Positions 26,324 through 51,369 of a stretch of DNA of 64,000 nucleotides are shown in pieces; position 1 is the stretch's first letter; every line of letters begins with the position of its first letter. The translations under genes and the position numbers were made by a program. The notes below the pieces were generated by a model that saw only the letters and a list, made by a program, of their open reading frames with translations, searched no databases and had not been told where the DNA came from. The stretch comes from an uncultured bacterium (GTDB lineage Bacteria > Verrucomicrobiota > Kiritimatiellia > RFP12 > UBA1067), in contig CACZHC010000001.1 in NCBI GenBank assembly GCA_902780865.1, forward strand, positions 3,554-67,553, in the 5' to 3' direction.

Positions 26324-26352
26324 TTGACAATTGCACGGGTTTGGTGTAGCAT
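26324..26352 (+). promoter_or_regulatory. Consensus-like sigma70 promoter TTGACA-N17-TAGCAT located just upstream of promoter box copy 2
   Basis: Read from sequence. Embedded in the palindromic GCAATTGaCAATTGC. Confidence 0.3.
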
Positions 26353-26394
26353 ATACTTTCGTATATTCCGCATTCTGGGGACATTTGGTAAAAT
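26352..26394 (+). promoter_or_regulatory. Promoter box copy 2: TATAC-TTTC-GTATA followed by TTCCGC-N18-TTTGGTAAAAT
   Basis: Read from sequence. Followed by an 11-codon uORF (26433..26468) containing the 8-bp inverted repeat TATTGGTC..GACCAATA, before the main ATG at 26484. Confidence 0.55.
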
Positions 26395-26483
26395 CGCACA
26401 AAACTGTTTCCAGAATTTGGAGCCAAGTGGGGATGAGAGATGAGTATTGGTCGGATAATGACCAATAAAATGGGGGTATAGAA

Positions 26484-29400
26484 ATGAAGAATTGTCATAG
26501 ACACGCAGCCAGGGCGCTTTGCTCGGTGGCTGGAATGTTGTTTGCAGCTTCGGCTTTTGCCGCAGATGATGCGGACGTCACCGGCCTCGTGCCAACGGTC
26601 TTCATGGACTTCGAAGCATCCAGTCTGGCGAACAAGGGCTCGGCAAGTGCCTCGTTCAAGGACGAAGGAACAAAAAAATACAGTAGCGGGGCTAATGGCG
26701 GCTATGCGCTTGATACGTCAAGCTTCACGCCGTATACGTCGAGTAGCGGTTCTTTCTCTACGGCCGGTGAGCCAATCACCGTCTCCGCCGTCATGACGCT
26801 TGGCACGAACACGAACGGCATCACTCTGAACGTCCGCTCGGCCGCCGGCGACCTGATCATCCGCCGCGGCGCCGACACGGGCTCGCTCGTCATCGGCTTC
26901 GGCTCGCAGGGGGCGGTTTCGACGGCAGTTTTGAACGCGACCTTTGCCGACGGCGATGCTGCCTGGCATCTCGTTTCCGTAGTCGCTGGTTCGACGGGCA
27001 CTGGACTCTACGTTGATGGCGTTCTCGTCGGTTCCACGACGGACACCACTCTGTGGAGCCCTACGGGCGTCCTGAGCGACATGCAGTTCGGATCGCACTT
27101 TGGAGGGCTCAAGACAGGCGATGTCAAAAATGGCGGCTGTATCGATGACCTCCGCATCCACGCTGCGGCGCTTACCACTGTCCAGATGACGGCGATCGCC
27201 GTCGAATACGGGATCGTCGTCCCGGAAGGACACATCGCCGTCCGAGCGTCGGGCGAGCCGACGGTCGGCAAGAACACGTTCTCGACGACCTGGTCGCTGG
27301 ACATCGCCCCGGACGACAGGGCCGAGGCCGCCCTCGTCTACGGTTCGGACGCCGCGCTGTCGACACCGACGACGAACGCTCTCGGCTCGGCCCTTTCCGC
27401 CGGAGACTACACGGCGTCCCTTGCCGGCCTTTCCCCCGGCACGACGTACTGGTGGAAGATCGTCGCGAGCAACGGCGTCAACCGGGCCGAAACGGACACG
27501 GCGTCGTTCCGCACGCTCGACGAGATCGTCCCGACGGACTACGCCAGTCGCATCCCCGCCGCCATCTCCGGCTATGCCGGGACGGATACGCTCACGAACT
27601 TCCCCGTCCTCGTGAAACTCGCCGCTGGACAGCCCGCCGGCTTCGACTACGCCGACTGCGCGGAGGACGGCGCGGATATCCGCTTCGCGTCCCCGGACGG
27701 CACGGTGCTGCCGCACGAAATCGACACGTGGAACACGAACGGCGAGTCGCTTGTCTGGGTGAAGATCCCGGCGATCGCCGGCACGGCCACGGCGTTCGCG
27801 ATGTACTACGCCGCGCCGGACCCGGCGAGGCTTCCGCCGGTCGATCCGCACGACGTCTGGACCGCGGCCGGACACCGCGCCGTGTGGCACTTCGCCGCGG
27901 ACGCGACGGAGTCCGCGCAGGGCCTGGTCGCCTCCACGGTCACCGGCACCCCGTCCTACGAGAACGACGGCGCCGTCGGCAAGTGCTGGCAGAGCGCGGG
28001 CGCGGCGTGGCTGCAGTACGCGAACGACGCCTCGTGGAGCAGGCTCGGCCCCGATTCGACGCTCACGATCTCCGTCTGGGCCAAGTTCGACTCCTCTTCC
28101 TACGGTTACAACCGTATCCTCTCCGCAATGTCGAGCTGGGAAAATCCGGCCGGCTACGAACTGACCGTCCAGAACAACAAGAACCAGATCACAGTCGGCT
28201 CGAGCGGCAAGAGCCAATACCAGAAGGTCGTTTCGCCGGGGCCGTCGGACGAGATGGTCTACCTCACGGCCGTCTACAACGCCGACACCTACGCGGACCT
28301 CTACGTGAACGGCGTCCTGCAGGAGCACAAGCAGCTCAATCCGCTCGTGTGGCCGACGGAGGCGATGACGGTCGCCTGCGTGGCCGGCGGCGGCAACGTC
28401 TGGAACGGCAAGCTGGACGAGCTCCGCCTCCACGCGGCCGCCGAATCGGCCGACTGGGTCAAGGCCTGCTACGACACGATGGCGGCGCCGACGTCGTTCG
28501 TCGCCCTCTCGCCGGCCGAATCGACCGACCCGGACCTGCCGCGGTTCGGCGCAGTTTCCGCGTCCGACGCGAACGGCGTCGCGACCTTCACCGTTCCGCT
28601 CACCGAGCCCGGCTACGGCGGCGAAGTCCCGACCGCCGTTTCGGTCTTCTACGGGACCGACGGCGAAACCTGGACGGAGCTTTCCCTCGGTTCGACGAAC
28701 GAGGCCGCGACGCTGACCGTCTCGGCGTCCGGGTTCGCGGTCGGCGTCCGGTACCTCTGGTACGCCGTCGCCACCGCGACGAGCGGCGGCACGCCCAAGA
28801 CGACGGTCTCCCAACCGCAGTCGTTCGTCGCCAGGGCCTTCGACCCGACGGGGGACTACAAGTCCTTCACGGCGACCGTCGTCTGGGACGGTGCGCCCGC
28901 GGAGAACCTCCCGTTCCTGCTGCGCATCTCCGAGGGCGGAATCAACGGCTTCGACTACGACGACGTCACGGCGTCCGGCCTCGAGATCCTCGACGCGGAC
29001 GGCCACCTGCTTCCCTTCGAGATCGACACGTGGAACACGGACGGCGAATCGCTCGTCTGGGTCCTTCTGCCCGTCTACGAAAACGGCGCGACGGTTACCG
29101 TCCGCTACGGCGCCCCGTTCGCCAACGCGCCGATTCCCGCGACGAACGTCTGGGCGGCCTATGTCGCCGTGTGGCACATGAACGAAATCCTCGTCGACGC
29201 CGATTCCGGCAACCACTACACGCCCGATTCCTCCGCGAGCGGCTGGCATGCCTACAAGTCCGACGAGGCGGACACCGTTCTGTCGCCTGTGACAACCGCG
29301 CCCGGAGCCTCCGCGCATCCGACGCCCCTCACCGGGACTGCGATGAACATCGCCTACGGCGCTGGGAAGTCGAGCTCGTCCCTCGGCGGCTTCCGTGTCC

Positions 29401-31574
29401 CTGCGGCACAGACCTCCACAACCACGCTGAATGGCCCTGGCTTCACGCTCTCCGCCATCGTCAACTCGCAGCAGATCGCCAACAACGGCCGTTGCCGCGT
29501 GATCGCCTTCGGAAACGAATACAACGACAGGGCCAACTTCGCGGTCGGCTCCGACAAGATCTACTGCATGGGATCCAACTCCCACAACAAGACCAATCCG
29601 AAGGGCGCGACGGGCTGGGTCTACGCCGCGGACGTCTTCAACTCGCCGTATTCGAAGATCTACGCCGACGGCGTCTGCCTTTCCGCCAGCAACGAGGGCA
29701 ACCCCAACCTCGCTAGCCTCACGCTCGACAAGGGCATCGGCCTCGGCTGCTTTACGGGCGGCAAACAGTGCCTCGACGGCTACCTCGACGAGGCGCGCAT
29801 CCGCAACGCGGCTTCGACCGCCGACTGGATCGCGGCCGAATACCACGCGATGGCGGACGCCGGAGCGATATCCTTCTCCTCCGTTTCCTCGTCCGACATA
29901 TCGGCTCCCGTTCTCGGGATACCGTCCGTCGAGAGTAACCCCGACGGCTCGTTCACTGTTTCCGTCGAAGTGTCCGAAAATACGCCGGCTTCGATTGTCT
30001 GCATAGTCGGAGGAACCGACTACGCGATGACAACCGCGGACGCGTCTCTCCCGACGACGTATTCCGCCATGGTTTCCGGCCTTGCGCCCGGCACCTATGT
30101 TGCGTCCGTCCATGCGACGGCAACGAGCGGAACGGTTGTTTCCTCGACCTGCCCGACAGCGTTCCATGTTGGTTCGCTGACAATCGTCAAGCAGTCCGAC
30201 GCCGACGAAGGCACGATTGCGCCCGGAGTCTTCCGCGTTTCGCGCCTTGACGCCGATTCCACGGGCCTGCCCGCCGTGACGTTCGACGTTGCGTTTTCCG
30301 GAAGCGGACTTGCCGCGATCGCCGCCCCCGGCATTTCGACCGCCACGATTCCCGCGGGCGCGGCGTATGTCGAGATCGCTGTGACGCCTGTTCCCACGGA
30401 CGAAGTGGATGAAGACAGCGAACTTGTCCTGACGGTTTCTGGTGCGCAGATCGGGCAGCAGTCGACCGGAACGCTGACCGTTGTGGACGCGGGGTTTGAC
30501 CTCGCGGTTCGCTATGTCTCCACGGATGGCAACGACGCCAACTCCGGCGGCACACCAGAGGCGGCCAAGAAGACGATAGCTGCTGCCGTCGCCGCCGTCA
30601 ATCCGGTTGCGCCGTCACGGCCCTGCACAGTCCATGTCGCGACTGGTCTCTATCCAATCACGAAACCGATCGTCGTAACGAACGCGATCGCCATTCTCGG
30701 TGACAATCCGGATCCGTCGCGCGTCGTCGTGTCGAACACCGTCATTGGAGGTTGGGGTGCGATGAACCGGATTTTCACGATCGACCATGCCGGCGCTTTT
30801 GTGGCGAACCTCACGATGCAGAATGGCAATGTGAACGGTTCTGATCATGGTGGAAACTTCAATGTCGGTTCTGCCGGCGGTATCGTGTCCAATTGCGTCG
30901 TCGAGGCCGGCAAAAGCAATGGAAACCTGTACGGGGCGGGAGCACGGCTTTCAGGTGGCCTCGTCACGCATACAGTCTTCCGCAAGAACAACTGCGGATC
31001 GGGCATGGGTAATTGGCAGGGACAGCATGGTGGCGTTCTGGAGCTTTATGGCTCGTCCCGCGCGGAGAACTGCCTCTTCGTCGACAATCCTCCGTCCGGG
31101 ACGGTCTACCTCTCTCTGATCGGCGATTCTGCCGTCATGCGCAACTGCACGATTGCCGACACGGGTCTTTCGAAGACGAACGAATACTGCAAGGTATTCA
31201 CCGCGATCCGCATCAACTCTTCGAAAGCGACGGTTCTCAACACCGTGATCGCCGGCGTGACGAACAAGATTGACGGCGCGGCTTGTCCGCCGACGGGGTC
31301 GGGCGTTGCGAATTTCCTGAACGGCGCGTTCGACGGCGATGTGACGGGGCTGCCCGAAGGCACCGTTACCGGAACGGCGGCGGAGTTCTTCAAGGACTAT
31401 GAGAACGGCGACTACACGCCGAGCTTCTCCGGCCCACTTGCAAATGTGGGCGATGAGTATGAGGGAATGGCCGCGGTTGATCTTGCCGGAAAGAAGCGCA
31501 AGGCCGGCAATCACATTGACATCGGCTGCTACGAGTGCCAGAAGGAGAAGGGCTTCTTTATACTTCTTCGATAA
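26484..31574 (+). CDS. Giant (1696 aa) secreted multidomain protein: LamG-like domains, two DUF2341-like modules, Fn3-like regions, and a C-terminal right-handed beta-helix ending DIGCYE..KGFFILLR
   Basis: Signal peptide. LamG signatures CIDDLRIHAAALT, LDELRLHAAAESADWV, LDEARIRNAASTADWI. Two DUF2341-like modules (NFPVLVKLAAG..GADIRFASPDGTVLPHEIDTWNTNGESLVWVKIP and LPFLLRISEGG..LEILDADGHLLPFEIDTWNTDGESLVWVLLP). Beta-helix region (..TVHVATGLYPITKPIV..NCTIADTG..) with terminal HIDIGCYEC. Confidence 0.7.
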   Translation: MKNCHRHAARALCSVAGMLFAASAFAADDADVTGLVPTVFMDFEASSLANKGSASASFKDEGTKKYSSGANGGYALDTSSFTPYTSSSGSFSTAGEPITVSAVMTLGTNTNGITLNVRSAAGDLIIRRGADTGSLVIGFGSQGAVSTAVLNATFADGDAAWHLVSVVAGSTGTGLYVDGVLVGSTTDTTLWSPTGVLSDMQFGSHFGGLKTGDVKNGGCIDDLRIHAAALTTVQMTAIAVEYGIVVPEGHIAVRASGEPTVGKNTFSTTWSLDIAPDDRAEAALVYGSDAALSTPTTNALGSALSAGDYTASLAGLSPGTTYWWKIVASNGVNRAETDTASFRTLDEIVPTDYASRIPAAISGYAGTDTLTNFPVLVKLAAGQPAGFDYADCAEDGADIRFASPDGTVLPHEIDTWNTNGESLVWVKIPAIAGTATAFAMYYAAPDPARLPPVDPHDVWTAAGHRAVWHFAADATESAQGLVASTVTGTPSYENDGAVGKCWQSAGAAWLQYANDASWSRLGPDSTLTISVWAKFDSSSYGYNRILSAMSSWENPAGYELTVQNNKNQITVGSSGKSQYQKVVSPGPSDEMVYLTAVYNADTYADLYVNGVLQEHKQLNPLVWPTEAMTVACVAGGGNVWNGKLDELRLHAAAESADWVKACYDTMAAPTSFVALSPAESTDPDLPRFGAVSASDANGVATFTVPLTEPGYGGEVPTAVSVFYGTDGETWTELSLGSTNEAATLTVSASGFAVGVRYLWYAVATATSGGTPKTTVSQPQSFVARAFDPTGDYKSFTATVVWDGAPAENLPFLLRISEGGINGFDYDDVTASGLEILDADGHLLPFEIDTWNTDGESLVWVLLPVYENGATVTVRYGAPFANAPIPATNVWAAYVAVWHMNEILVDADSGNHYTPDSSASGWHAYKSDEADTVLSPVTTAPGASAHPTPLTGTAMNIAYGAGKSSSSLGGFRVPAAQTSTTTLNGPGFTLSAIVNSQQIANNGRCRVIAFGNEYNDRANFAVGSDKIYCMGSNSHNKTNPKGATGWVYAADVFNSPYSKIYADGVCLSASNEGNPNLASLTLDKGIGLGCFTGGKQCLDGYLDEARIRNAASTADWIAAEYHAMADAGAISFSSVSSSDISAPVLGIPSVESNPDGSFTVSVEVSENTPASIVCIVGGTDYAMTTADASLPTTYSAMVSGLAPGTYVASVHATATSGTVVSSTCPTAFHVGSLTIVKQSDADEGTIAPGVFRVSRLDADSTGLPAVTFDVAFSGSGLAAIAAPGISTATIPAGAAYVEIAVTPVPTDEVDEDSELVLTVSGAQIGQQSTGTLTVVDAGFDLAVRYVSTDGNDANSGGTPEAAKKTIAAAVAAVNPVAPSRPCTVHVATGLYPITKPIVVTNAIAILGDNPDPSRVVVSNTVIGGWGAMNRIFTIDHAGAFVANLTMQNGNVNGSDHGGNFNVGSAGGIVSNCVVEAGKSNGNLYGAGARLSGGLVTHTVFRKNNCGSGMGNWQGQHGGVLELYGSSRAENCLFVDNPPSGTVYLSLIGDSAVMRNCTIADTGLSKTNEYCKVFTAIRINSSKATVLNTVIAGVTNKIDGAACPPTGSGVANFLNGAFDGDVTGLPEGTVTGTAAEFFKDYENGDYTPSFSGPLANVGDEYEGMAAVDLAGKKRKAGNHIDIGCYECQKEKGFFILLR

Positions 31575-31588: not shown

Positions 31589-31632
31589 TACACTTTCGTG
31601 TATTGCCGCCTTCGCGACGCTTTTGGTACAAT
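31589..31632 (+). promoter_or_regulatory. Promoter box copy 3: TACAC-TTTC-GTGTA / TTGCCG-N18-TGGTACAAT; ATG at 31643 lies about 10 nt after the -10 (leaderless)
   Basis: Read from sequence. Confidence 0.6.
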
Positions 31633-31642: not shown

Positions 31643-34183
31643 ATGAAACGAATATTCTTAGTGGTACTTGTCGCTCCGCTCGCGCTCGCCGCGGCGGAGG
31701 TTTCGCGCGACGATGCCGCGATTGCGGCGCGCGCATGGGTTGATCGCGGCTATGCGATGGGCAAGCTCCCTGCCGGGTGCACCGTTGCGGGCGTGGACGA
31801 GGTGACGGATCCGGACACTGGCGCGGAGTTGCGCGTGGTGCGCTTCACTGGCGGCGGCTATGTCGTTCTCTCGGCCAACGATCTTGTCGATCCGGTAATT
31901 GCTTTTTCCGAGACTGGAACTGGCCTCGACCTCGACGATGACAATCCGTTTTGGGCGCTCCTGCGCAGCGACATTGCGGCGCGCGAGGCCCATGCAGGTG
32001 TCGAGCGCGGCAAATCCGCCGCGGCGAAGAAGGGGACTGGCGTGCTTCTCGCCGCGTCCGGTCGGACGACCGCGCAGCGCAAGTGGGACAATCTCCTCTC
32101 GAAGCCTTCGGGAGGCGCCCCCGTGCTCCGCGCCGTAGCGGGTCTCTCCTCGCTCTCGGACATTCGGGTTGACTCGTTCGTGCAGTCGCGCTGGTCGCAG
32201 TCCGGTCACGCCAATACCGATTTAGGCGTTCCGTGTTACAACTACTACGTGACGAACCACTACGTCTGCGGTTGCGTTGCTACCGCACAGGCGCAGCTGA
32301 TGCGCTACTGGTGCTATCCGACAGCGAACGAGCCGGTCGAGCCGTTCTACAATCTCTGCATGGTCGACAACAAGTACATCTTCCCCTACATAATGGGCGG
32401 GGCTTACGACTGGGACAATATGCCACTTGAACCGATGTGGGTCGCGGACATTACGGAGGAACAGTGCCAGGCCATCGGCAAGCTCACCTACGACGTCGGG
32501 GTAACCGTACGCATGGAGTGGAAGTCTGACGGAAGCAGCGCGAGCGTGCCATCCACCGTGGCGTCCCTGACGCACAACTTCCATTACGCGAGCGCGCACG
32601 CCGTTTCCTATTCGTCCGGCTCCTGCAAGTTGGATCTGTTCAAAAAGGCCCTGATTCCCAACCTCGATGCCCGCTGTCCGTGCATCCTGAGCATCCAAGG
32701 TTCCGGCGGCCACGCGATCCTCGCCGACGGCTACGGCTATTCAGATGGCAATTTCTTCATCCATGTCAACATGGGCTGGGCAGGCTCGGGCGACGCTTGG
32801 TACAATCCGCCGAACATCGAGGAATACACGTCGATCAAGGCCTACGTCTACAATGTCTTCCCCAGGAAGACCGGCTCCATCGCGAGCGGCCGCGTGCTCG
32901 ACCAGTCGGGGAATGCCGTCGCGGGCGCGAACGTGGCGCTCTCCGACGGACAGACGACGGTTTCCGACGCGAACGGCATCTATGCGTTCATCGCGCCCGC
33001 CGGGACGTACGATCTTACGGCCGCAAAGGGCGGCTTTACCGCGCTGGGCTCGGTGACGCTCGGCGAAACGGCCGGAATCAACGTCTCGACGAACATCGGC
33101 ACGTATGGGACCTACAATCACGGCACCGGCAAGAACGGCAACGTCTACGACAACGACCTCCAGTTCGCGGACATGCCGTCCACTTCGGCACCCGTCTTCT
33201 CTCCCGGGGCGTGTGCCGTCCACCCTGCCACCAACGTAACAATCACCTGTGCCAATGCGAACGCGACGATTCGCTACACGGTCGACGGCACGGCGCCGGA
33301 CGAGACGAGCCCCCTATACGACGGGCCGATTTATGTGAACGACACCGTCACGATCAAGGCGCGTGCCTTTGCGCCCGGTTGCAACGCTAGTGCCGTTGCC
33401 GTTGCGGACTACGTATACGATCCGGGAGACGGTCCGCAGAAGGGCGACAACTTCGACGATCCGATCGAGATCTATGGCGCGAGCGGAACGCGCGTTGTCG
33501 CGGACAACGAGCTTTACACGATCGAGGAAGGCGAGCCGGTCCATGTCGTCATCGATGGCACGCCCAAGCCCCAGCTCCGCTCGATCTGGTACCGCTGGAC
33601 GGCACCCGCGAGCGGACGCGTGACCTTCCGCACGTACTGCCGGAAAGGCAACGCCGCCTACTATACCAACATTGCCGCCTACCAGGGGGATACGCTCGCC
33701 AGCGCCGAGAAGATCGCCTTCTCGACTGCTAACGACGCCAACTACGCGGCGCTCCTTCCCCTCGACGTCGTCCAGGGGACCACCTACCGGTTCGTCGGAA
33801 TGATCAACTCGACCAATGCCCCCGCGGCCTTCGGGACCTTCACGCTGCGCTGGGACGACGAATTCCCGACCACATTGCCTTTGCCCGTCTTCCGTCCTGC
33901 CGAGCAGGGTGGGGGAATGTTGTTCGCCGGCTCTGGGGCGGGCCGTAGTTTGACATTCTATCTTGAAGACACGCTTCCTACGGCTTATTACGCGGTGTTC
34001 ACCAATGGGACTTTGAGGGGGCCATTTTTCGCGGCTGCCAATGGTGTTACGGGGGCGAATAGTGGCGTTCTTGAGCTTCCCGTCGATGCCAAGGAATCGT
34101 CCAAGTTCTTCGCCATCGGCGTGTCGGACAAGCCCATTTCCGTCGGCGACCCGCTCGTGCCGAGGGCAAATGCTGGCAACTAA
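31643..34183 (+). CDS. Secreted C10-family (streptopain/SpeB-like) cysteine peptidase with a CarbopepD-regulatory-like domain, a chitobiase/hexosaminidase C-terminal-like domain, and a C-terminal ~100-aa domain shared with the 47182 protein
   Basis: Signal peptide MKRIFLVVLVAPLALAAA. WSQSGHANTDLGVPCYNYYVTNHYVCGCVATAQAQLMRYW (catalytic Cys motif GCVATA.AQ.M.Y). GGHAILADGYGY (catalytic His). GRVLDQSGNAVAGANVALSDGQTTVSDANGIYAF. ANATIRYTVDGTAPDETSPLYDGPIYVNDTVTIKARAF. Confidence 0.7.
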   Translation: MKRIFLVVLVAPLALAAAEVSRDDAAIAARAWVDRGYAMGKLPAGCTVAGVDEVTDPDTGAELRVVRFTGGGYVVLSANDLVDPVIAFSETGTGLDLDDDNPFWALLRSDIAAREAHAGVERGKSAAAKKGTGVLLAASGRTTAQRKWDNLLSKPSGGAPVLRAVAGLSSLSDIRVDSFVQSRWSQSGHANTDLGVPCYNYYVTNHYVCGCVATAQAQLMRYWCYPTANEPVEPFYNLCMVDNKYIFPYIMGGAYDWDNMPLEPMWVADITEEQCQAIGKLTYDVGVTVRMEWKSDGSSASVPSTVASLTHNFHYASAHAVSYSSGSCKLDLFKKALIPNLDARCPCILSIQGSGGHAILADGYGYSDGNFFIHVNMGWAGSGDAWYNPPNIEEYTSIKAYVYNVFPRKTGSIASGRVLDQSGNAVAGANVALSDGQTTVSDANGIYAFIAPAGTYDLTAAKGGFTALGSVTLGETAGINVSTNIGTYGTYNHGTGKNGNVYDNDLQFADMPSTSAPVFSPGACAVHPATNVTITCANANATIRYTVDGTAPDETSPLYDGPIYVNDTVTIKARAFAPGCNASAVAVADYVYDPGDGPQKGDNFDDPIEIYGASGTRVVADNELYTIEEGEPVHVVIDGTPKPQLRSIWYRWTAPASGRVTFRTYCRKGNAAYYTNIAAYQGDTLASAEKIAFSTANDANYAALLPLDVVQGTTYRFVGMINSTNAPAAFGTFTLRWDDEFPTTLPLPVFRPAEQGGGMLFAGSGAGRSLTFYLEDTLPTAYYAVFTNGTLRGPFFAAANGVTGANSGVLELPVDAKESSKFFAIGVSDKPISVGDPLVPRANAGN

Positions 34184-36375: not shown

Positions 36376-36404
36376 TTGATTCCATATTGGTTTTTTGGTA
36401 AAAT
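36376..36404 (+). promoter_or_regulatory. sigma70-like promoter TTGATT-N17-(TG)GTAAAAT upstream of 36454; lacks the inverted-repeat box but retains the TTTTGGTAAAAT element
   Basis: Read from sequence. Confidence 0.4.
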
Positions 36405-36453: not shown

Positions 36454-38745
36454 ATGACCAAAGGTTGCAGCAGTATAGACCGCGGCAAATCTGCCGCGGA
36501 TAAGAGTGTACATCTTATGCTGGCATTCCGCCTTTCGGCTCTTGCCATCTTTGCCGCCGCGGCGTATGTTGCGATCGCTGCCGAGATTCCAAATGCGGAC
36601 GTGGTCAATCCTGTCAATCTCGTTTCGACAGTCGGCGGCTCGGCGTCCAGCGACACAAAATGCCTAAACAGCGACAATCAATATGGGGTTACGAGGGCGT
36701 TCGATGGCGTTAACAACACTGACACGGATAACCGCTGGATTGGGCACGGTAGCACTTTCCCGCAGCGAGCCGTATGGACTTTCCCTTCAGCTACTGTTGT
36801 GGATGCCTTTCGCATTTACAACGCCTCATATAACGGAGCTTATCAATCGCCTTCGACATTCACGTTTGCGGGTGCGAACGATGACGAAAAGTGGAAAATT
36901 CTTGACTCTGAGAGCTCGATTACGGGCTGGTCTGCCGGCTCATACCGGACATTTAGCTTTACCAACCGTACACCCTACAAGAAGTATCGGCTCGAGATCA
37001 CTGCGGTTCAAGACATGACAAGTTCAAATGGGAAGCGGCTGTCGATTAGGGAAATTGAGCTATATCGACTTAAGGCAGTTACTTTTGGTGTTGAGCCATC
37101 TGGCTCGCCAACTATTGGACATAATTCGTTCTCGACGTATTGGACGCTTATTGCAGCAGGTGGCGCGACGGCAGATGCAGGCATTGTGTGGAGCGCCGAC
37201 GAGACGTTAGCGACTGCCGTAACCAATTCGCTCGGCACCAGCCTTTCAGGCGGAATATATACCGCGACGCTCTCGAACTTAGAGCCAGAAACGAAGTACT
37301 GGTGGAAAATCTTCGCGACAAACGCGACCGATTCTGCCGATACTGAGGTTGCTTCGTTTAAGACAAGCGGTGCGCCTGTTATCGGTAGTTGCACACGCAC
37401 GGTAGATGGTAATGCCGTTACATTCTCCATTGCCCTTGACGAGGTGGCTCTGGGGAACACGCTGATCACGTCGGTTTCGGTCTTCTACGGAAGCGACGGC
37501 GAGAACTGGACGGAGCTTTCGCTCGGTTCAACTTCAGCGGCAGCGACTTGGGTCGAGACGGTTGAGAATCTAGATTGGGGGACAACTTATCAGTGGTTTG
37601 TTGGTGCTTCGGCTACGATGGAGGGTGGCCGTATGCTTTCGACTTCTTCTGCGACCAACTCCTTTACTACGCTCTACAACGGCGATATGTATGTCGACGC
37701 CGCGGCAGAAAACGCAACGCCACCTTATTCCACGTCTGCGACCGCCGCCAAGACCATCGCCGCCGCGTTGGCACTCGCCGCCGCCGGCGCGACGATTCAC
37801 GTCGCCGAAGGCCTGTATAAAATTTCGAACCCGCTGAGCGTGACGTCTGCCGTTCGCATTCTCGGCGATGATCCGGACCCTTCGCGGGTGGTTGTCTCCA
37901 ATACTGTGAAGGCAAACTACCAGAACGGAAATCGGCGTGTCTTTATTCTCAATCATGCCGATGCATTCGTGGCGAATCTGACCATGAAGAATGGCTCGGC
38001 ATGGGGCGACTGGACAGCGGGCGGCAATCTCTACATCAACACCAACGGCGGCACGGTCTCCAACTGTGTGCTGGAGGCCGGGTTGCTTGTTTCGGGACAT
38101 GGCAACGGTGGAGGTGCAACATTGGAGGCGGGATTGATCACGCACTCCACAATTTGCAAGAGTTCCTCGGAGAAGGGATCGACCAAGGAGGGAAAGAACA
38201 AGGCGGTAGCGCTTTACCTGAAAGGTGCATCCCGTGCCGAAAACTGCCTCATCGCTAATCATCATCCTGCAACATCTTTAACTATTGCAAAACTCGACGG
38301 CACAGCAATCATGCGGAACTGCTCAATTGTCGATGGCTCTCTCACGGCAACGAGCGAGTGGTGCACGGTGCGGTCTCCGCTCGTCATCGGTGCCAACGCC
38401 ACAGTGCAGAATGTTGTTGTTGCAGGCATCACGAATACTGTTGACAATATCCCGTGTCTTCCTACCGGAACTCGGTCAAATTTCGTCAATGGCGCGGTCG
38501 AAGGGGATATAACTGGAACCTCATTCCCCGAAGGCACCGTTACCGGCACGGCATCGTCGTTCTTCAAGGACTACGCGAACGGCAACTACACGCCGAAGGC
38601 GGGCGGGCCGCTCGTCGGGAATGGCGAGAACTACGAGGGCATGGCGTCTGTCGACCTAGCGGGCAATCCGCGCAAAATAGGCAGCAAGATCGACATCGGC
38701 TGCTACGAGGCGAGCTCTTCGGCGTTAGTTATAATCGTGCGCTGA
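36454..38745 (+). CDS. Secreted F5/8-type C (discoidin) domain + Fn3-like + right-handed beta-helix protein; ends KIDIGCYEASSSALVIIVR
   Basis: Discoidin-like segment RAFDGVNNTDTDNRWIGHGSTFPQRAVWTFPSATVVDAFRIYNAS..YKKYRLEIT. Fn3-like TYWTLIAAGGATADAGIVWSAD..TKYWWKIFATN. Beta-helix ATIHVAEGLYKISNPLSVTSAVRILGDDPDPSRVVVSN. GGAGGA RBS before the ATG at 36454; alternative start at MLAFRL (36517). Confidence 0.65.
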   Translation: MTKGCSSIDRGKSAADKSVHLMLAFRLSALAIFAAAAYVAIAAEIPNADVVNPVNLVSTVGGSASSDTKCLNSDNQYGVTRAFDGVNNTDTDNRWIGHGSTFPQRAVWTFPSATVVDAFRIYNASYNGAYQSPSTFTFAGANDDEKWKILDSESSITGWSAGSYRTFSFTNRTPYKKYRLEITAVQDMTSSNGKRLSIREIELYRLKAVTFGVEPSGSPTIGHNSFSTYWTLIAAGGATADAGIVWSADETLATAVTNSLGTSLSGGIYTATLSNLEPETKYWWKIFATNATDSADTEVASFKTSGAPVIGSCTRTVDGNAVTFSIALDEVALGNTLITSVSVFYGSDGENWTELSLGSTSAAATWVETVENLDWGTTYQWFVGASATMEGGRMLSTSSATNSFTTLYNGDMYVDAAAENATPPYSTSATAAKTIAAALALAAAGATIHVAEGLYKISNPLSVTSAVRILGDDPDPSRVVVSNTVKANYQNGNRRVFILNHADAFVANLTMKNGSAWGDWTAGGNLYINTNGGTVSNCVLEAGLLVSGHGNGGGATLEAGLITHSTICKSSSEKGSTKEGKNKAVALYLKGASRAENCLIANHHPATSLTIAKLDGTAIMRNCSIVDGSLTATSEWCTVRSPLVIGANATVQNVVVAGITNTVDNIPCLPTGTRSNFVNGAVEGDITGTSFPEGTVTGTASSFFKDYANGNYTPKAGGPLVGNGENYEGMASVDLAGNPRKIGSKIDIGCYEASSSALVIIVR

Positions 38746-38886: not shown

Positions 38887-38929
38887 TACACTTCCGTGTA
38901 TTGCCGACCCGCGGCGTATCTGGTAGAAT
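38887..38929 (+). promoter_or_regulatory. Promoter box copy 4: TACAC-TTCC-GTGTA / TTGCCG-N18-TGGTAGAAT; ATG at 38939 lies 9 nt after the -10 (leaderless)
   Basis: Read from sequence. Confidence 0.6.
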
Positions 38930-40514: not shown

Positions 40515-40565
40515 TACACTTTCGTGTTGTCGCATTGGCGCGCTTTTGGTAAAATTGCAACAACG
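40515..40565 (+). promoter_or_regulatory. Promoter box copy 5: (CACTACA)x2-TACAC-TTTC-GTGTT / -N15-TTTTGGTAAAAT; SD AGGAG precedes the ATG at 40586
   Basis: Read from sequence. Confidence 0.55.
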
Positions 40566-43312: not shown

Positions 43313-43355
43313 TACACCTTCGTGTATTGTCTCCCGTGAACGCTTTTGGTAAAAT
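43313..43355 (+). promoter_or_regulatory. Promoter box copy 6: TACAC-CTTC-GTGTA / TTGTCT-N17-TGGTAAAAT; followed by a 10-codon leaderless uORF (MLPKGLEEVV) whose TGA overlaps the main ATG (ATGA)
   Basis: Read from sequence. uORF spans 43357..43389. Confidence 0.55.
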
Positions 43356-45782: not shown

Positions 45783-45801
45783 TGACTTGCATAAGATAAC
45801 T

Positions 45802-45858
45802 CTCTGCGTGCTCTGCGTCTCTGCGTTGAAATATCCTACACGTCCTACATGGTTAAAA
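45802..45858 (+). promoter_or_regulatory. Variant regulatory region: three tandem CTCTGCGT repeats, then two direct repeats of CCTACA at 9-bp spacing abutting a TGGTTAAAAA -10-like element
   Basis: Read from sequence. The same CTACA half-site as the inverted-repeat boxes, in direct-repeat configuration. Confidence 0.4.
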
Positions 45859-45872
45859 ACGAAGGAGGCAAA

Positions 45873-47117
45873 ATGATAAGACCATTGGTTGCGGTTCTTG
45901 TGGCGGCGGTTTCGTTTGGAGTTGCGAACGGCTATACCGTCGACGCGGAAATTCCGGCGGGGAACATCGTCGTGAAGTCGATCGAAGGCGATGTCGTGAA
46001 GCTGAAACAGGACTTCCGCGACACGCCCGGACACTGGATCTACTGGGCGTTCCGCGTCAGAGGTGCCGCGGGACGGACGCTCACCTTTGACTTCGGCGAC
46101 TCGGCCGCGGTCGGCTCCCGCGGCGCGGCGGTTTCGGAAGACCACGGTGGACACTGGCGCTGGTCCGACTTCGAGAGGGACGATCCACGCGACCCGGTGA
46201 CGGGAGACCACGCATCGTACACGACCTTCACCTGGAAGTTTGGCCCGGACGACAACGAGGTGTGGTTCTCGCAGACCTTCCCGTACTCGCAGTCCGACTG
46301 GGAGGCCTTCCTCGCGGCGCACGCGGCGGACTACGGCAGGGTCTTTGTCACCAACACTCTGTGCCTCTCGAAGAAGGGGCGTCCCGTCGAGGCAGGACGC
46401 TTCGGACGCATCGACGGCAAGGCCAAATACCGCATGTTCGTCACTTCGCGCCACCACTGCGCGGAGACGACGGCGACGTTTGTGATGGAAGGGCTTCTGT
46501 CGGCCGTCTTCGGCGATGACGAACTCGGACGCTGGATGCGCGAGAACATCGAGATACGCGCCGTTCCGTTCGTCGACAAGGACGGCGTAGTTGATGGCGA
46601 CCAGGGCAAGAACCGCAGACCATACGACCACTGCCGCGACTACAACGACGACAAGCCGTCCATCCACCCCGAGATCAAGGCGATCCGCGAGATGCTGGAG
46701 AAGTGGGCGAAGGAGAGCGGAACGCCGTCCGTCGTGATGGACCTGCACTGCCCGTGGCTCCGCGGCAGCTGGCTCAAGAAGGACGACTCGAACGAGTACA
46801 TCTACGCCGTCGGAATCAAGGACGTCGAGCCCCAGCAGCGCCGCATCTGCGAGATACTCGAGCGCGTGCAGGAGTCTGGTTCCGGGTTCCTCGCCTCGGA
46901 CTACTACGCCGAGGGCCGCGGATGGAACACGGGCGCGAACTACAAGGCTGGCTCGACGCTCACGCAGTGGGCGATACGCACCTGGCCGGACGCGCCGCTC
47001 GTGGTCTGCTTCGAGATTCCCTTCGCGAACGCGCGCCGCATGACGCTCATGCCGCCGACGTTCCGCCTCTTCGGCCGCGACATTGCGCTCGCGCTCAAGG
47101 CCTATCTCGAGCCGTAG
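45873..47117 (+). CDS. M14-family zinc carboxypeptidase-like protein with an N-terminal beta-sandwich domain
   Basis: AAGGAGG RBS. Signal peptide MIRPLVAVLVAAVSFGVANG. Zn-ligand-like HHCAET (HxxE). IEIRAVPFVDKDGVVDG (NPDG-like). MDLHCPW (second His). Confidence 0.5.
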   Translation: MIRPLVAVLVAAVSFGVANGYTVDAEIPAGNIVVKSIEGDVVKLKQDFRDTPGHWIYWAFRVRGAAGRTLTFDFGDSAAVGSRGAAVSEDHGGHWRWSDFERDDPRDPVTGDHASYTTFTWKFGPDDNEVWFSQTFPYSQSDWEAFLAAHAADYGRVFVTNTLCLSKKGRPVEAGRFGRIDGKAKYRMFVTSRHHCAETTATFVMEGLLSAVFGDDELGRWMRENIEIRAVPFVDKDGVVDGDQGKNRRPYDHCRDYNDDKPSIHPEIKAIREMLEKWAKESGTPSVVMDLHCPWLRGSWLKKDDSNEYIYAVGIKDVEPQQRRICEILERVQESGSGFLASDYYAEGRGWNTGANYKAGSTLTQWAIRTWPDAPLVVCFEIPFANARRMTLMPPTFRLFGRDIALALKAYLEP

Positions 47118-47130: not shown

Positions 47131-47173
47131 TACACTTTCGTGTATTGCCGCCTTCGCGTGCTTTTGGTAGAAT
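47131..47173 (+). promoter_or_regulatory. Promoter box copy 7: TACAC-TTTC-GTGTA / TTGCCG-N17-TGGTAGAAT; ATG at 47182 lies 8 nt after the -10 (leaderless)
   Basis: Read from sequence. Nearly identical to copy 3. Confidence 0.6.
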
Positions 47174-47181: not shown

Positions 47182-49989
47182 ATGCAACGGATATTCCCAA
47201 TGGCACTTGCCGCTCCGCTCGCGCTCGCCGCGGCGGCTGCGCTTCACGGAGCCGTTCCTGACGTCACCGGCTCGCTCGAGTACGTCAGCAGCCCAGCCAA
47301 GCATCGCTGGCCCGCGGGAGGCTCCTCGTGCGGCGCGCTCGACCTCCAGTTCCACCGCGGAACGCTCCTCGTCGGCAGCGGCGAGGTCGAGAGCAACCCC
47401 GGCCCCGTCTGGGTCTATGGAACCGACCCGCTCACGCTCGAGGAGAGCTTCGAATATTCCGCCGGCACCGAGGCGCTCGCAAGCTGTCGTGTCGCGTCGT
47501 GGGGCGAGCTTCTCGTGCCGTCGCAGGACCTGCATGACGGAGACCCAAACGGCGGCACTGTCTTTACGCGCGATATTACCGGCACCTGGAAGCGCTTCAA
47601 CAGCATCGGCGGGAGCGTGCCCACCGCCTCGTCTGGAGTCGTCTACAACAAGACGCACATCTGGGACATGGAGGAGTTCGACGGACGGGTATTCACATCC
47701 GGATACCAGTTGCACTGGTCGACGAACCGCTGCGTAAAATTTGTCGATACCGGCTCGATCACGAACGCCTACCGCGTCCTCTACTATATGACGAGTTCAA
47801 CGAGCGGTCAGGGGCGGTGGTCCCTGCGCCGGCAGATGCAGCTGTTGCGCTTCGCCAACGACCTCTACGCGGTCCCGAACACCCTGATCCAGCCGAACAA
47901 CCGCGTCGCGGACAACGACAAATGGTACAACAAGGCCGAGGTGTTCACTTATAATTCGTCGACGAAGAAGTTTGACGAGTCGCGGCAGGCGATGTCGACA
48001 CTTTTCCCGAACATCTCGTCGAACGACTTCCGCCTTGTCCTTTCGTCCGCGAGTACCACGACCTGGGACCCGCTGCCGACGGGCACATACGACACCGTAC
48101 TTGTGCGTCTCTGGCACACGACGCCGTTCAAGGGGCGCGTCCTCTACGTGGGCTGCTACGACACGAAGCCGGGCTCCCCCGCGTTCACGTCGTACCCCCT
48201 CCCGTTGATGGGATGCTCGGCGTACGTGCAGACGTATGGCGGCAAGAAGACGCTCAAGGCGGACCGCCTTTCGTTCGACAACGACAAGGAGGAGTACCCG
48301 TGGGATTTCACGGTTGTCGGCGACACGTGCTATGCGCTCACGTCGAAGCCCAACGCGTCTACGAAGGTCGTTCGCCATTCTGTCTGGAAGTCAACTAACG
48401 GCACGAGTTTCACGCGCGTCTTTTCGTTCGACTTCCACCAGAACATGATTTCGCTCGACTACCGCGATGGCTGGTTCTGGCTGGGCGTCGGCGTGAAGAA
48501 TGCGACGAGGGGCTACGCCTACGACAGCAAAAAGGCTGACGAGGCGGGCGCGGTCTACCGTGTGCGGCTTCCGCAGGAGCCGACTTCCGTCGAGGCGGTC
48601 AATCCGCCGACAGCTGTTGCGGAAGGGGGCTCGGCGTCAATCGCGTTCCGCCTCACGGCGCAGCCATCGTCCAATTTGACGCTGCGCGTCGCAGCTCGCG
48701 AGCGGCGCGGCGTTTCGCTCGACAAGTCGTCTCTCACGTTCACCACGTCGAACTGGTCGACGCCGCAGACCGTCTTTGTTTCGCTTGCGGACGACGACGT
48801 TGGCGACACGTCGAAGATTTTTGTGCAGTGCGGCGCCTTCGGCGACGACGTGGAGCGCGGCGAGTTCTTCAGCCCCCAGGTGACATCCGCCCTCGTGACG
48901 CTTGAACCTGTCGAGAACGACATTCCTGCGACAGTCGTTTCGGAGTCGTGCGATCCGGGCGTCGGCAAATGCACATATCGCGCGACGTTCGATTCGCTCG
49001 GGAGCGTGAACGGAACGGCCGCGTCGTCAGCCGCCGTGTCGGTGAAGATCTATTCCGACGCCGCGCTCACGGCGCTTGTCGGGGAGACTTCGGGAACAGT
49101 CTCCGCGACTGGAACGGAATGGTCCTTCGTCGTCAACGGACTCGAGAGAGGTGTCTGGTACTGGGTCGTCGCAGAGACATCGACCGCGCCTGGCGTCGCG
49201 CATGTGTTCACCGCGAAGTACCTCTCGCCCATCGCGGACCCGGAAAACCTCGTCGATCTTATGGATGACGAGTCCAACCGCGAGGCGACGTATTCCAACT
49301 CGACTTCCGGCGGTGCGACGGGATCTACTGCGTTCGACAACTCGTCGTCAAAGTTCGGCGGATACAAAAAGCCCGTCGAGTTCTTCTACCAGTTCAAGAC
49401 GCCGGTCGTAGTCAAGGCGTTTGGCGTCGAAGGGGCCGGTAATTCCAACCCCGACCAGGACCCGTCGACAATCAAGATCTTCGGGGGAATCTCGACGAAT
49501 GCGAGCGACCTCGTGCAGCTCTTTTCGCGTACGGGGGAGCCGGCCTGGACTGCCGGAGAATGGCGTCGCTGGCTCGTAGAGAACGAGACTGCCTACACTT
49601 TCTACAAGTTCCAGATGTCCGGCGCTCACCAACACTGCTACATCCGCGAAATCGAGCTCTACGGAGACGTCACTGCGATCGGAGATGTGCCTGCGCCCGT
49701 CTTCCGCTCAGCGGCGGACGGTGGAGCCATGACTTTCTCCGGGACGGGCGCTTCGCGCATTCTCACGCTTCACCTAGTGGGCGCGCTTCCGCAGACGTAT
49801 TACGCCGTTTTCACGAACGGCACCTTGAATGGCGCCTTCTTTGCGGCTTCCGACGGCGTGTGCGGCGAGGCGAGCGGCGCGCTCGAGATATCCGTCGCCG
49901 CCAAGGAGCCGTCCAAGTTCTTCACCGTTGGCGTTTCCGCGGAGCCGATCTCCGAAGGCGACTTGCTCGTGCCTGGAGGCTCGCGGTGA
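47182..49989 (+). CDS. Secreted surface protein with a Calx-beta-like domain, a discoidin/F5-8-C-like domain, and a C-terminal ~100-aa domain shared with the C10 peptidase
   Basis: Signal peptide MQRIFPMALAAPLALAAAAALHG. Calx-beta-like segment PTAVAEGGSASIAFRLTAQPSSNLTLRVAARE..TFTTSNWSTPQTVFVSLADDDVGDTSKIF. Discoidin-like segment ..KKPVEFFYQFKTPVVVKAFGVEG..YKFQMSGAHQHCYIREIELYG. C-terminal ..YYAVFTNGTLNGAFFAASDGV..SKFFTVGVS.. Confidence 0.55.
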   Translation: MQRIFPMALAAPLALAAAAALHGAVPDVTGSLEYVSSPAKHRWPAGGSSCGALDLQFHRGTLLVGSGEVESNPGPVWVYGTDPLTLEESFEYSAGTEALASCRVASWGELLVPSQDLHDGDPNGGTVFTRDITGTWKRFNSIGGSVPTASSGVVYNKTHIWDMEEFDGRVFTSGYQLHWSTNRCVKFVDTGSITNAYRVLYYMTSSTSGQGRWSLRRQMQLLRFANDLYAVPNTLIQPNNRVADNDKWYNKAEVFTYNSSTKKFDESRQAMSTLFPNISSNDFRLVLSSASTTTWDPLPTGTYDTVLVRLWHTTPFKGRVLYVGCYDTKPGSPAFTSYPLPLMGCSAYVQTYGGKKTLKADRLSFDNDKEEYPWDFTVVGDTCYALTSKPNASTKVVRHSVWKSTNGTSFTRVFSFDFHQNMISLDYRDGWFWLGVGVKNATRGYAYDSKKADEAGAVYRVRLPQEPTSVEAVNPPTAVAEGGSASIAFRLTAQPSSNLTLRVAARERRGVSLDKSSLTFTTSNWSTPQTVFVSLADDDVGDTSKIFVQCGAFGDDVERGEFFSPQVTSALVTLEPVENDIPATVVSESCDPGVGKCTYRATFDSLGSVNGTAASSAAVSVKIYSDAALTALVGETSGTVSATGTEWSFVVNGLERGVWYWVVAETSTAPGVAHVFTAKYLSPIADPENLVDLMDDESNREATYSNSTSGGATGSTAFDNSSSKFGGYKKPVEFFYQFKTPVVVKAFGVEGAGNSNPDQDPSTIKIFGGISTNASDLVQLFSRTGEPAWTAGEWRRWLVENETAYTFYKFQMSGAHQHCYIREIELYGDVTAIGDVPAPVFRSAADGGAMTFSGTGASRILTLHLVGALPQTYYAVFTNGTLNGAFFAASDGVCGEASGALEISVAAKEPSKFFTVGVSAEPISEGDLLVPGGSR

Positions 49990-51314
49990 TCCGGCGCGGA
50001 CATGCAGTGCTACCACTGGCAGCCCTTGCCGCGCTCGCGTTGCCTGCGGCCGCGTTCTGTGAAGCCGCCGGACGCTACGTTCCGACATATGACGCCGAAA
50101 AGGCGTGGTATCTCGGCGAGCTCGGTGTCACGAACCTTCTGAACGCCGGCATTACCGGCAGAGGCGTCCGCGTCGGTGTCATCGACCTCGGCGTGGGCGA
50201 CATCGTGACCGGGGCGCACACGAACCTGCACTGCGCGGCGAAGGGTGGAAAATCCATGCGGGCCATGCACGGCCCGGCGGTTGCGGGCATCATCGCCTCC
50301 GACCTCTATGGCGTCGCGCCGGAATGCGAGATCTACGCCTACGACAACGGGGACGGCACTGCTGACGACCTGATTGCCGGCTTCGCCTGGTGCGTCTCGA
50401 ACGGATGCCGCGTGATCAACTACTCCGGCGGCATGCACCGGTTTTCGCGAGGCGTCGGCAACCTTCCGGAGGAGGCCGCCGCCGCGAAGCTGGAGGAGCT
50501 CCGCGCCGCGGTCCGCGCGGCGATGTCGGCGGGAATCGTCGTTGTGGCATCGGGCGGCAACGCGCCGAACGAGACGCTTACCTGCCCGCAGGACGTAGAT
50601 GGCGTGATCAACATCGGCGGAGTCGCTCGCACGCGCAAGTCCGCCGGGCTCAACGACTCCTGGGCGAAGGACTTTTGCGCCTTCGGCAAGGACGTGCCGA
50701 TCTTCACTTCGCGCTCCGGCGCGACAGGCGCGCAGAGCGGCTCGTCGTTTGCCGCGCCGATGGCAACCGGAATCATCGCGCTCCTGCTCCAGCAGGAGCC
50801 CTCGCTCACGCGCGACGAGATATACGGCATCCTGCGCTCCACCGCCTTGCGGCCCGAAGGAGGCCGGACGAAAACCCACGGCTACGGACTCCTCCAGGCC
50901 GCGCGTGTCCCGGCGGACTACAAGCGCCAGGCCGCGTTCGACGCCGAGCAGGCCGCGTTCGTGCGTACGGATTCGGCCGAGCTGCTCAACGAAGGCATTT
51001 CGTGGAACGAGGAGCGCGGGTTCTACGAGACGAAAATGCGCCCCGGGGAATCGATGAAGCTTGAGTACAGGATCAATCCCGCGAATGCCACCGACCGGAA
51101 CCTCTACTGGTACTGCGGCAACATGCCGACATTTCGTCCGATTGAGCTCGACCAGGTCCTGACGATCCCCGCCATGACAAAGCCCGGCGAGTTCCTTGTC
51201 TACTTCGCGCGCAACGACGCTCGGCAGATCGTCTGCCGGCTGCGCGTCGACGTCGTCGCGCCAGATCCCGCCGCTCCGCTCGCCGAACCCGCCCGCGAAC
51301 TCTGCCGGCAATAG
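49986..51314 (+). CDS. Secreted S8-family subtilisin-like serine peptidase; GTG start overlaps the upstream stop (GTGA)
   Basis: Signal peptide VIRRGHAVLPLAALAALALPAAAF. Catalytic triad motifs VGVIDLGV (Asp), HGPAVAGIIAS (His), GSSFAAPMATG (Ser). Confidence 0.8.
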   Translation: MIRRGHAVLPLAALAALALPAAAFCEAAGRYVPTYDAEKAWYLGELGVTNLLNAGITGRGVRVGVIDLGVGDIVTGAHTNLHCAAKGGKSMRAMHGPAVAGIIASDLYGVAPECEIYAYDNGDGTADDLIAGFAWCVSNGCRVINYSGGMHRFSRGVGNLPEEAAAAKLEELRAAVRAAMSAGIVVVASGGNAPNETLTCPQDVDGVINIGGVARTRKSAGLNDSWAKDFCAFGKDVPIFTSRSGATGAQSGSSFAAPMATGIIALLLQQEPSLTRDEIYGILRSTALRPEGGRTKTHGYGLLQAARVPADYKRQAAFDAEQAAFVRTDSAELLNEGISWNEERGFYETKMRPGESMKLEYRINPANATDRNLYWYCGNMPTFRPIELDQVLTIPAMTKPGEFLVYFARNDARQIVCRLRVDVVAPDPAAPLAEPARELCRQ

Positions 51315-51326
51315 CCGGACGGCGGG

Positions 51327-51369
51327 CTACACTTTCGTGTATTGTAGGGGCGGGTGGTTTTTGATAGAA
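51327..51369 (+). promoter_or_regulatory. Promoter box copy 8: TACAC-TTTC-GTGTA / TTGTAG-N16-TTGATAGAAT; a 4-codon leaderless mini-ORF (MVEK) then SD AGGGGAGGG before the ATG at 51411
   Basis: Read from sequence. Confidence 0.55.

Follow-up and report, generated by a model that had tools for sequence, protein, structure and literature searches.

A shared promoter-proximal dyad and a NarL-type two-component system in a secreted-protein island of gut Kiritimatiellae

The 64-kb window analysed here (positions 3,554 to 67,553 of contig CACZHC010000001.1, from an uncultured bacterium of the Kiritimatiellia) contains a series of genes for large secreted proteins, many of which are preceded by the same short inverted repeat, hereafter the dyad, placed immediately upstream of promoter-like sequence. 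This raises the question of whether the repeats are a common operator and, if they are, which protein reads them. An initial annotation of the window had taken the dyad and the adjoining promoter as one module, and its copies as the mark of a co-regulated set of surface and extracellular proteins. Our analysis indicates that this reading is essentially right and that the finding is real. The module would be a housekeeping-sigma promoter (TGnTAnAAT, with a weak -35 of the form TTGYCN) with a 14-bp operator, TACAC-TTT(C/T)-GTGTA, fused upstream, and the dyad is most likely bound by a NarL-type response regulator whose gene lies at the island's edge.

The dyad and its promoters

The dyad, TACAC-YTYC-GTGTA or a close variant, is present in eight copies in the window, all of them intergenic and all on the + strand. 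A search for the exact sequence TACACNNNNGTGTA returned six (18424, 31589, 38887, 43313, 47131 and 51328, + strand) against 0.01 expected by chance, and none of 100 dinucleotide-preserving shuffles of the window reached six. A fuzzy search added the two variants at 26352 (TATACTTTCGTATA) and 40515 (TACACTTTCGTGTT) and found no comparable match with up to two mismatches on the - strand or in the gene interiors of the window; at three mismatches the only matches lie at 60347, 9936 and 2105, and they look like noise. The open reading frames downstream of all eight copies begin with signal-peptide-like N-termini. Together, the exact and fuzzy searches and these N-termini bear out the eight near-identical copies upstream of signal-peptide genes that the initial annotation had reported, at the positions it had given for seven of them, the last beginning at 51328 and not at 51327.

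In seven of the eight copies an extended -10 element (TG[G/A]TAnAAT) begins 32-35 nt after the start of the dyad, the distance to its TG being 34 nt in five copies, 35 nt in one and 32 nt in one. With the -10 hexamer set at -12 to -7, from which the transcription start sites were deduced, the dyad would span about -49 to -36 with its centre at ~-42.5, in agreement with the centre near -43 proposed earlier. A TTG-type -35 follows the dyad directly, with a spacer of 17-18 nt; within the close clade it agrees with the consensus at three to four of six positions, and distant relatives have none. On these deduced start sites the arrangement has class II geometry, that is, a site centred about -41.5 to -44.5 that abuts or overlaps a weak -35. 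The hexamer TTGCCG, previously ascribed to every copy, was found in three of them (at 31603, 38901 and 47145) and not in the other five, the sequence elsewhere being TTGTCT, TTGTAG, TTCCGC or (GT)TGTCG. A full promoter module, likewise ascribed to all, is present in seven copies and missing from that at 18424, which is a dyad only, with no -35 or -10 at the module spacing; the best -10 downstream of it (TGcTAGAAT, hexamer at 18506) would place the dyad centre at -87.5. The orthologous junctions in three related loci (L012, L021 and L026) carry a normal full module.

The two halves of the module differ in their specificity. TGGTAnAAT also occurs without a dyad at 15665, upstream of the response-regulator gene, at 36396, upstream of a gene starting at 36454 that is a paralogue of other island genes, and at 57652, upstream of a fumarase gene. 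These dyad-less elements follow a T-run, and the same element is found upstream of a C10 peptidase gene in the sister strains L001, L003 and L004, the core promoter of L001 reading TGGTATACT. The promoter of the paralogue (gene 36454-38745), at 36376..36404 on the + strand, consists of TTGATT, 17 nt and TGGTAAAAT and serves as an internal control. Because TGGTAnAAT is thus found without the dyad, the TTTTGGTAnAAT half is simply the promoter that this organism uses generally, and what is specific in the module is the dyad alone, so that the earlier view of the whole module as a regulatory unit stands for the dyad and falls for the core promoter. Nor is the dyad a general feature of secreted-protein genes, since it is absent from those at 2000-13772 (glycoside-hydrolase-type); that at 36454 lacks it as well.

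The extended -10, TG[GA]TAnAAT, is present in seven of the eight window modules and in all 27 of the non-redundant modules described below, a count that is limited by the scan patterns, which demanded a -10-like element. From the -10 to the start codon the distance is 8-10 nt in three genes, about 30-45 nt in three, and about 90 nt at 26352. In the first group the ATGs (31643, 38939 and 47182, all of secreted-protein genes) lack a Shine-Dalgarno sequence and follow the -10 hexamer by 8-10 nt, so that the mRNAs of these genes would seem to be leaderless; such near-leaderless starts give independent support for the -10 assignment. The other dyad targets have GGAGG leaders.

Three further features were considered. 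A hairpin or second dyad flanking the -10, seen by eye at 31589 as GCGACGC...GCGTCGC, was rejected after a permutation over 37 distinct modules (mean best stem 3.59, compared with 3.48 for mismatched arms, p = 0.27). The half-site CTACAC is in excess in the window (36 observed, 11 expected), mostly in coding sequence and on the + strand; probably a matter of codon usage, it was not used as evidence. Terminator-like sites, considered as possible intrinsic terminators between the units, are no commoner than in shuffled sequence.

Distribution of the module and linkage to the two-component system

In order to see how widely the module occurs, we scanned one genome per species (596 Gb) for a dyad followed after 17-21 nt by an extended -10. 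There were 14 matches, 12 of them in eight metagenome-assembled genomes (MAGs) of gut Kiritimatiellae/'Lentisphaerae', with one or two matches per MAG, always on a single contig. A metagenome scan gave 25 matches, about 22 of them from the same lineage (60-66% GC), and the two scans pooled give 41 unique and 27 non-redundant modules. These precede at least 12 classes of large signal-peptide proteins, and 31 of 32 distinct downstream N-termini are signal-peptide-like by a crude heuristic. Of the 27 modules, 21 have 20 nt separating the dyad from the TG of the -10, four have 21 nt and two have 18 nt. The dyad, two bases on each side of it (AC...TT) and the -10 are conserved, and the 20-nt spacer and the flanks are variable.

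A series of this kind could also arise without any regulatory role, either as promoters copied along with tandemly duplicated paralogues or as fragments of a mobile repeat resembling a miniature inverted-repeat transposable element (MITE). Several of the downstream genes are indeed paralogous, the conserved C-terminal domain of an upstream paralogue precedes three modules (repeat families D3, D6 and D8), copies 3 and 7 share a promoter plus signal peptide (D13), and mosaic promoters show recombination. The dyad is nevertheless near-invariant while the 20-nt spacer and the flanks diverge, even where the associated histidine kinases are about 50% identical, and modules stand before non-homologous genes, namely those of a C10 peptidase, GH43, LamG and CBM9 proteins and the two-component system itself. 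Their orientation, uniformly toward the start codon, and their distance to it are always promoter-like, the shared similarity extends over only about 52 nt (D10), and terminal inverted repeats, target-site duplications, transposases and integrases are all lacking; in the island Pfam likewise detected no recombinase and no sigma factor. We consider a non-regulatory origin very improbable.

The candidate regulator belongs to a two-component system at the upstream edge of the island. A NarL/FixJ-family response regulator (15694..16326, + strand; receiver plus GerE/LuxR helix-turn-helix by Pfam), proposed here as the dyad-binding protein, is followed by a sensor histidine kinase with a signal peptide and one transmembrane helix (16337..18418, + strand; HisKA_3 and HATPase by Pfam, with a gene call in L002). 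By tblastn, 13 further loci have orthologues of this regulator-kinase pair, with kinases 75-100% identical, directly upstream of a dyad promoter. The dyad thus lies directly after the kinase stop codon in the window and in L012, L021, L026, L005, L006, L014, L015, L017, L018, L028, L040, L042 and L043, and the gene behind this kinase-proximal promoter belongs to at least five classes among these loci. The pairing of regulator and kinase is conserved in all orthologous loci. Among the eight MAGs of the genome scan, the contig with the dyad was shown to encode both regulator and kinase in five; in two more (contigs of L017 and L018) the C-terminal part of the kinase was found, the retrieved piece ending there, and in the eighth (contig of L010/L011) neither gene was in the pieces retrieved, these three being compatible with the same arrangement. 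The kinase family is itself small, a search of 5.8 billion proteins giving only 19 clusters at E<=1e-20.

Contigs were also fetched blind to the motif, through kinase homologues of 49-79% identity, and on those that carry regulator-kinase orthologues dyad promoters are always nearby, despite changes in gene order. In L047, L044 and L045 (kinase 64%, 50% and 49% identical) the order is a gene for a protein of about 1230 aa, then kinase, then regulator. Upstream of this operon L047 and L044 have TACACTTT(C/T)GTGTA, 20-21 nt and TGnTAnnAT; L044 has a second dyad directly after the regulator gene and before a GH43 gene, and in L045 a dyad stands about 4.7 kb downstream of the regulator gene, before that of an F5/8-type-C protein. 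L048/L049 (kinase 79%) is a minimal island between housekeeping genes, consisting of regulator, kinase, a LamG/Flg_new_2 protein and a CBM9 protein. Over 22 kb L048 has two dyads and no more: the first stands before the regulator gene, which would fit autoregulation, and the second after the kinase gene; L050 (kinase 76%) also has two, one of them with the central TTTC inverted. The protein of about 1230 aa is a full-length homologue (33% identity) of the CBM9 protein of the window (53847-57629), is also homologous to the dyad-driven genes of 'class B', and is adjacent to the two-component system; therefore a CBM9-type protein and the two-component system form a conserved core of the regulon. 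The LamG/Flg_new_2 and CBM9 gene pair that follows copy 8 in the window directly follows the regulator and kinase in L048. No dyads were seen in the kinase-deletion variants L052-L054 within the 3-10 kb retrieved, which agrees with the model, although pieces so short carry no weight.

This linkage bears on whether the dyad might be read by a factor encoded elsewhere, such as a CRP/FNR-like or XRE-like dimer on a 5-4-5 site, the two-component system then being a mere neighbour or member of the regulon. Dyads of 5-4-5 form centred near -41.5 or -42.5 also have the geometry of FNR-type sites, and the regulator-kinase operon of the window has no dyad of its own. Against this, the adjacency of two-component system and dyad is kept across kinase identities of 49-100% and through changes in gene order, motif and kinase family are equally narrow in distribution, and the sites are few per genome and on a single contig, with the two-component system on it in five of eight MAGs and part of the kinase in two more, so that a dedicated local regulator fits. 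The half-sites TACAC/GTGTA are not those of a CRP/FNR site (TTGAT-N4-ATCAA), and Pfam found no cNMP-binding or HTH_Crp gene in the window or the related loci, no competing regulator in the island, and no other regulator recurring in the related loci. The GntR/LacI-type regulator (1009-2097), which the initial annotation had offered as a second candidate, proved to be unlinked, its sole homologue in the related loci being a 30%-identical paralogue in L045. We regard an outside factor as unlikely, and the NarL-family protein at 15694..16326, the other candidate named there, gains support from its conserved linkage, as does the co-regulated set of secreted proteins from the dyad conservation, the narrow lineage and the presence of the two-component system on the same contigs.

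The candidate regulator and the sign of control

The regulator has the features of a NarL/FixJ protein, that is, a receiver with a phospho-acceptor Asp, a C-terminal GerE/LuxR helix-turn-helix and an adjacent HisKA_3 kinase (Pfam Response_reg 1.1e-24, GerE 1.2e-10). The closest solved structure is Escherichia coli NarL (E 2.8e-37; full-length alignment to 1a04). NarL makes base-specific contacts through K188, V189 and K192 (PMC10853779); these alpha-9 residues are kept in the regulator, in VKVRLKH, as is K174. The equivalent of D56 (in LLDIRMP) is invariant among the orthologues. Six of them, of 69-100% identity, also have the recognition helix ED[G/A]VKVRLKHAYEKL unchanged, and the dyad that they accompany is invariant too.

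The kinase resembles NarX in its HisKA_3-type core and differs from it in its sensor. An AlphaFold2 model (mean confidence, pLDDT, 73) predicts a signal peptide, four beta-barrel repeats (about aa 20-440), one transmembrane helix and a DesK-like core, so that the extracytoplasmic region of about 420 aa would form four OB-like barrels, where NarX-type proteins have a four-helix nitrate sensor. Foldseek likens the barrels to tandem OB/HIN and LEF-3 folds and the kinase core to DesK and VraS; the best PDB folds for the sensor region (16337-17660) were the HIN-200 tandem OB fold and baculovirus LEF-3, and the architecture matched no characterised histidine-kinase sensor.

NarL sites have the form TACYYMT-N2-AKRRGTA, two heptamers inverted 2 bp apart over 16 bp, and NarL activates yeaR and ogt in a class II-like manner from such 7-2-7 sites, whose centres, at -43.5 and -44.5, put them immediately before the -35 (PMC10853779). 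The dyad resembles these in its outer TAC...GTA, in being an inverted repeat and in its position just upstream of the -35, at ~-42.5 here as compared with -43.5/-44.5 (PMC10853779). It is not a NarL box, however, because it is 2 bp shorter: the 14-bp TACACTT|TCGTGTA can be read as 7-0-7 or 5-4-5, its half-site is TACAC(T/G)(T/A) where NarL has TACYYMT, and position 4 is A and not Y. The targets differ as well, being secreted proteins here and respiratory enzymes in NarL regulons, and R178 is not conserved.

Other families offer partial parallels. In the lux-box promoters of LuxR/TraR and the RcsB-box promoters, dimeric proteins with a GerE/LuxR helix-turn-helix act at sigma-70 promoters on a dyad abutting a weak -35, much as the candidate here has a LuxR-type helix-turn-helix and the dyad sits at about -42.5 by a weak -35; their sites, however, are 18-20 bp long (lux box) or have other half-sites (RcsB box), and LuxR and TraR bind a ligand and are not phospho-receivers. 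The polysaccharide utilization loci of Bacteroidetes, with hybrid two-component or SusR-like sensors, are alike in placing a sensor beside secreted glycan- or protein-acting enzymes, presumably induced by a fragment of an extracellular polymer. They are unlike the island, which belongs to the phylum Kiritimatiellota, has no SusC/D genes, and combines a two-protein NarL-type system with an operator shared by many separate promoters.

In the reading that we propose, and to which we assign a probability of about 0.62, a dimer of the phosphorylated regulator would bind to the dyad and from there activate the promoters in a class II-like manner. The membrane kinase (16337-18418) would sense an extracytoplasmic ligand through its four tandem OB-like barrels and phosphorylate the regulator (15694-16326), whose dimer would then bind the dyad, each LuxR-type helix-turn-helix reading one outer TAC/GTA triplet in NarL fashion. 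About eight units would be activated in this way, their products being large proteins that are secreted or at the surface (LamG, beta-helix-like, C10 and S8 peptidases, CBM9). The start sites, the identity of the binding protein and the sign of regulation are all drawn from sequence. Activation is favoured because the phasing of dyad and -10 is strict, the -35 is weak or, in distant relatives, absent, and a dyad stands upstream of the two-component operon in three lineages.

The same operator and regulator could also serve repression, by the regulator or its unphosphorylated form, since NarL-family proteins repress some promoters. A repressor at -49 to -36 would occlude sigma region 4 and the path of the C-terminal domain of the RNA polymerase alpha subunit (alpha-CTD) on promoters that would be constitutive in its absence. 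The dyad extends up to or into the TTG of the -35, and the core elements of the dyad promoters are as good as those of the dyad-less ones (TGGTAnAAT) and so should fire unaided. However, the phasing (mostly 34 nt from dyad start to TG) is of the strict kind typical of activators that contact RNA polymerase, whereas repressor sites tolerate variable positions; the lack of a conserved -35 in distant relatives (GTGACT, GATACA, TTTATG) points to promoters that need an activator; and in L044, L047 and L048 the dyad before the two-component operon fits positive autoregulation, which is common for two-component activators. Repression, the main rival reading, seems to us rather doubtful.

Several points weigh against activation by this regulator. 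The near-consensus extended -10 is like that of the dyad-less, presumably constitutive, promoters, so that an activator may be dispensable, leaving room for repression. R178, through which NarL contacts the alpha-CTD, is Ala in the regulator, and the dyad has TAC-N8-GTA over 14 bp where the 16-bp 7-2-7 site of NarL has TAC-N10-GTA. Linkage is association and not binding, the regulator-kinase operon of the window has no upstream dyad, and the kinase-adjacent copy at 18424 is without proper promoter geometry. Finally, the scans demanded the dyad, so that ascertainment accounts for part of its internal conservation; the search of the window, the kinase-based retrievals and the flanking positions are free of this.

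Organisation and variation of the island

The units of the island all lie on the + strand. Copy 1 (TACACTTTCGTGTA, 18424..18437), the atypical one, stands 6 nt after the kinase stop codon and is followed by a probable operon at 18543..26312, as judged from open reading frames, Pfam and short or overlapping gaps, which encodes an 826-aa secreted protein, a 270-aa Tat-signal protein, an FAD oxidoreductase and a 915-aa GH5-like protein. At 21041-23559 the gene for the 270-aa protein, with its twin-arginine-like signal (MNRREFLKRG...), overlaps the start of that for the FAD-dependent oxidoreductase, and the two may form a Tat-exported redox pair among otherwise Sec-type secreted proteins. Copy 2 (26352..26394; TATACTTTCGTATA, 20 nt, TGGTAAAAT) is upstream of a 1696-aa LamG/DUF2341 protein (26484-31574), and copy 3 (31589..31632; dyad, TTGCCG, 18-nt spacer, TGGTACAAT) of a C10 peptidase with a near-leaderless ATG (31643-34183). 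Copy 4 (38887..38929) precedes the near-leaderless gene of a 511-aa protein (38939-40474). Copy 5 (40515..40555), upstream of an 882-aa paralogue (40586-43234), has a 2-bp deletion (TACACTTTCGTGTT) such that its GTCG completes a TTGTCG -35, and an identical variant occurs at L029:3654.

Copy 6 (43313..43355) is upstream of a 798-aa paralogue (43386-45782), whose gene is probably co-transcribed with that at 45849-47117. Copy 7 (47131..47173) leads to the near-leaderless ATG at 47182 of a 935-aa protein (47182-49989), to which an S8 subtilase (GTG, 49986-51314) is translationally coupled. The probable GTG start of the subtilase at 49986 overlaps the upstream stop (GTGA) and gives a good signal peptide (MIRRGHAVLPLAALAALALPAAA); a longer ATG-initiated frame from 49560 overlaps the upstream gene by 430 nt. 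Copy 8 (51328..51370; dyad, 20 nt, TGATAGAAT) is upstream of the LamG/Flg_new_2 protein (51411-53765) and also precedes, as second gene, that of the 1260-aa CBM9 protein (53847-57629).

The gap of 82 nt before the CBM9 gene contains, at 53790-53822, three direct CTACA(C/T) repeats of period 9 that resemble half-sites; relatives have a full or decayed dyad in this gap, and L048:14590 keeps only TACACTTCCGT. Dyad promoters before the CBM9 protein of ~1250 aa have a leader of 180-230 nt with three to four copies of CTCTGCG spaced about 8-9 nt (seen in L010, L013, L016, L017, L020, L027, L030, L032 and L038), and a fragment of such a leader is found in the window at 45790-45825, between the genes 43386-45782 and 45849-47117. 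No Rfam family was matched in the long class-B leader or the window, the only matches being two tRNAs in L013.

The island varies in size from two target genes (L048) to about 16 (window). The minimal, ancestral-looking form would be the regulator, the kinase, the LamG protein and the CBM9 protein, and the window would be an expanded version, with about eight transcription units, of this two-gene core. Part of the increase in copies is due to promoter-gene units having been duplicated and recombined. A C-terminal domain of about 330 aa is common to five island proteins and, together with the next promoter, forms a repeat unit (families D3, D6 and D8), and copies 3 and 7 are 87% identical from the dyad through the signal peptide (D13), whereas the proteins behind them are otherwise unrelated, apart from about 96 aa at their ends. 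In L048 the -10 is the exact junction between a class-A promoter and a class-E leader.

Variation is also seen between strains. A PGK protein identical to that of the window occurs in rumen and gut assemblies, among them MAG GCA_002392825.1. After this 100%-identical PGK gene comes the regulator-kinase island in the window (15563-15694) and L002, and in L001/L003/L004 (3314-3484) a different C10 peptidase gene, whose TTTTGGTATACT promoter lacks a dyad; strains therefore differ in whether they have the island. In at least three independent assemblies (L052:1161-2507, L053 and L054; P0015/P0016) the regulator gene is followed by a truncated kinase fused to a LamG protein, in which the first ~180 aa of the kinase (68-77% identical) are joined to LamG, and then by homologues of window 21041-26312. 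This chimera is a natural kinase-deletion variant. P0016 was also considered as the kinase N-terminus fused to the window gene starting at 18543, which we rejected, as the LamG part does not match that gene and only the downstream genes are common.

The sharing in D13, the junction in L048 and the strain-level changes of island and kinase make the modules appear to double as recombination joints, and the kinase-proximal promoter that drives at least five different genes across genomes is compatible with this. We suggest, tentatively, that the modules (dyad, -10 and sometimes the signal peptide) may be portable homology joints by which secreted-protein genes are swapped, duplicated or replaced under one sensor. 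If so, gut Kiritimatiellae would have in the island a 'cassette array' of surface and secreted proteins that diversifies fast and varies from strain to strain.

Literature searches returned nothing published on the dyad motif and no paper on Kiritimatiellota promoters or two-component regulation. The locus would represent an uncharacterised two-component regulon whose kind, the classical NarL/FixJ-type operator-promoter arrangement, is textbook two-component control. It provides a promoter consensus with which to work in this group (TTTTGGTAnAAT), some of the genes being apparently leaderless, and a specific, testable chain from sensor to regulator, operator and regulon. It also defines a set of large secreted proteins (peptidases, LamG, beta-helix and CBM proteins), which has been expanded and reshuffled at the strain level and whose members would be deployed together, probably in response to an extracellular polymer of the gut.

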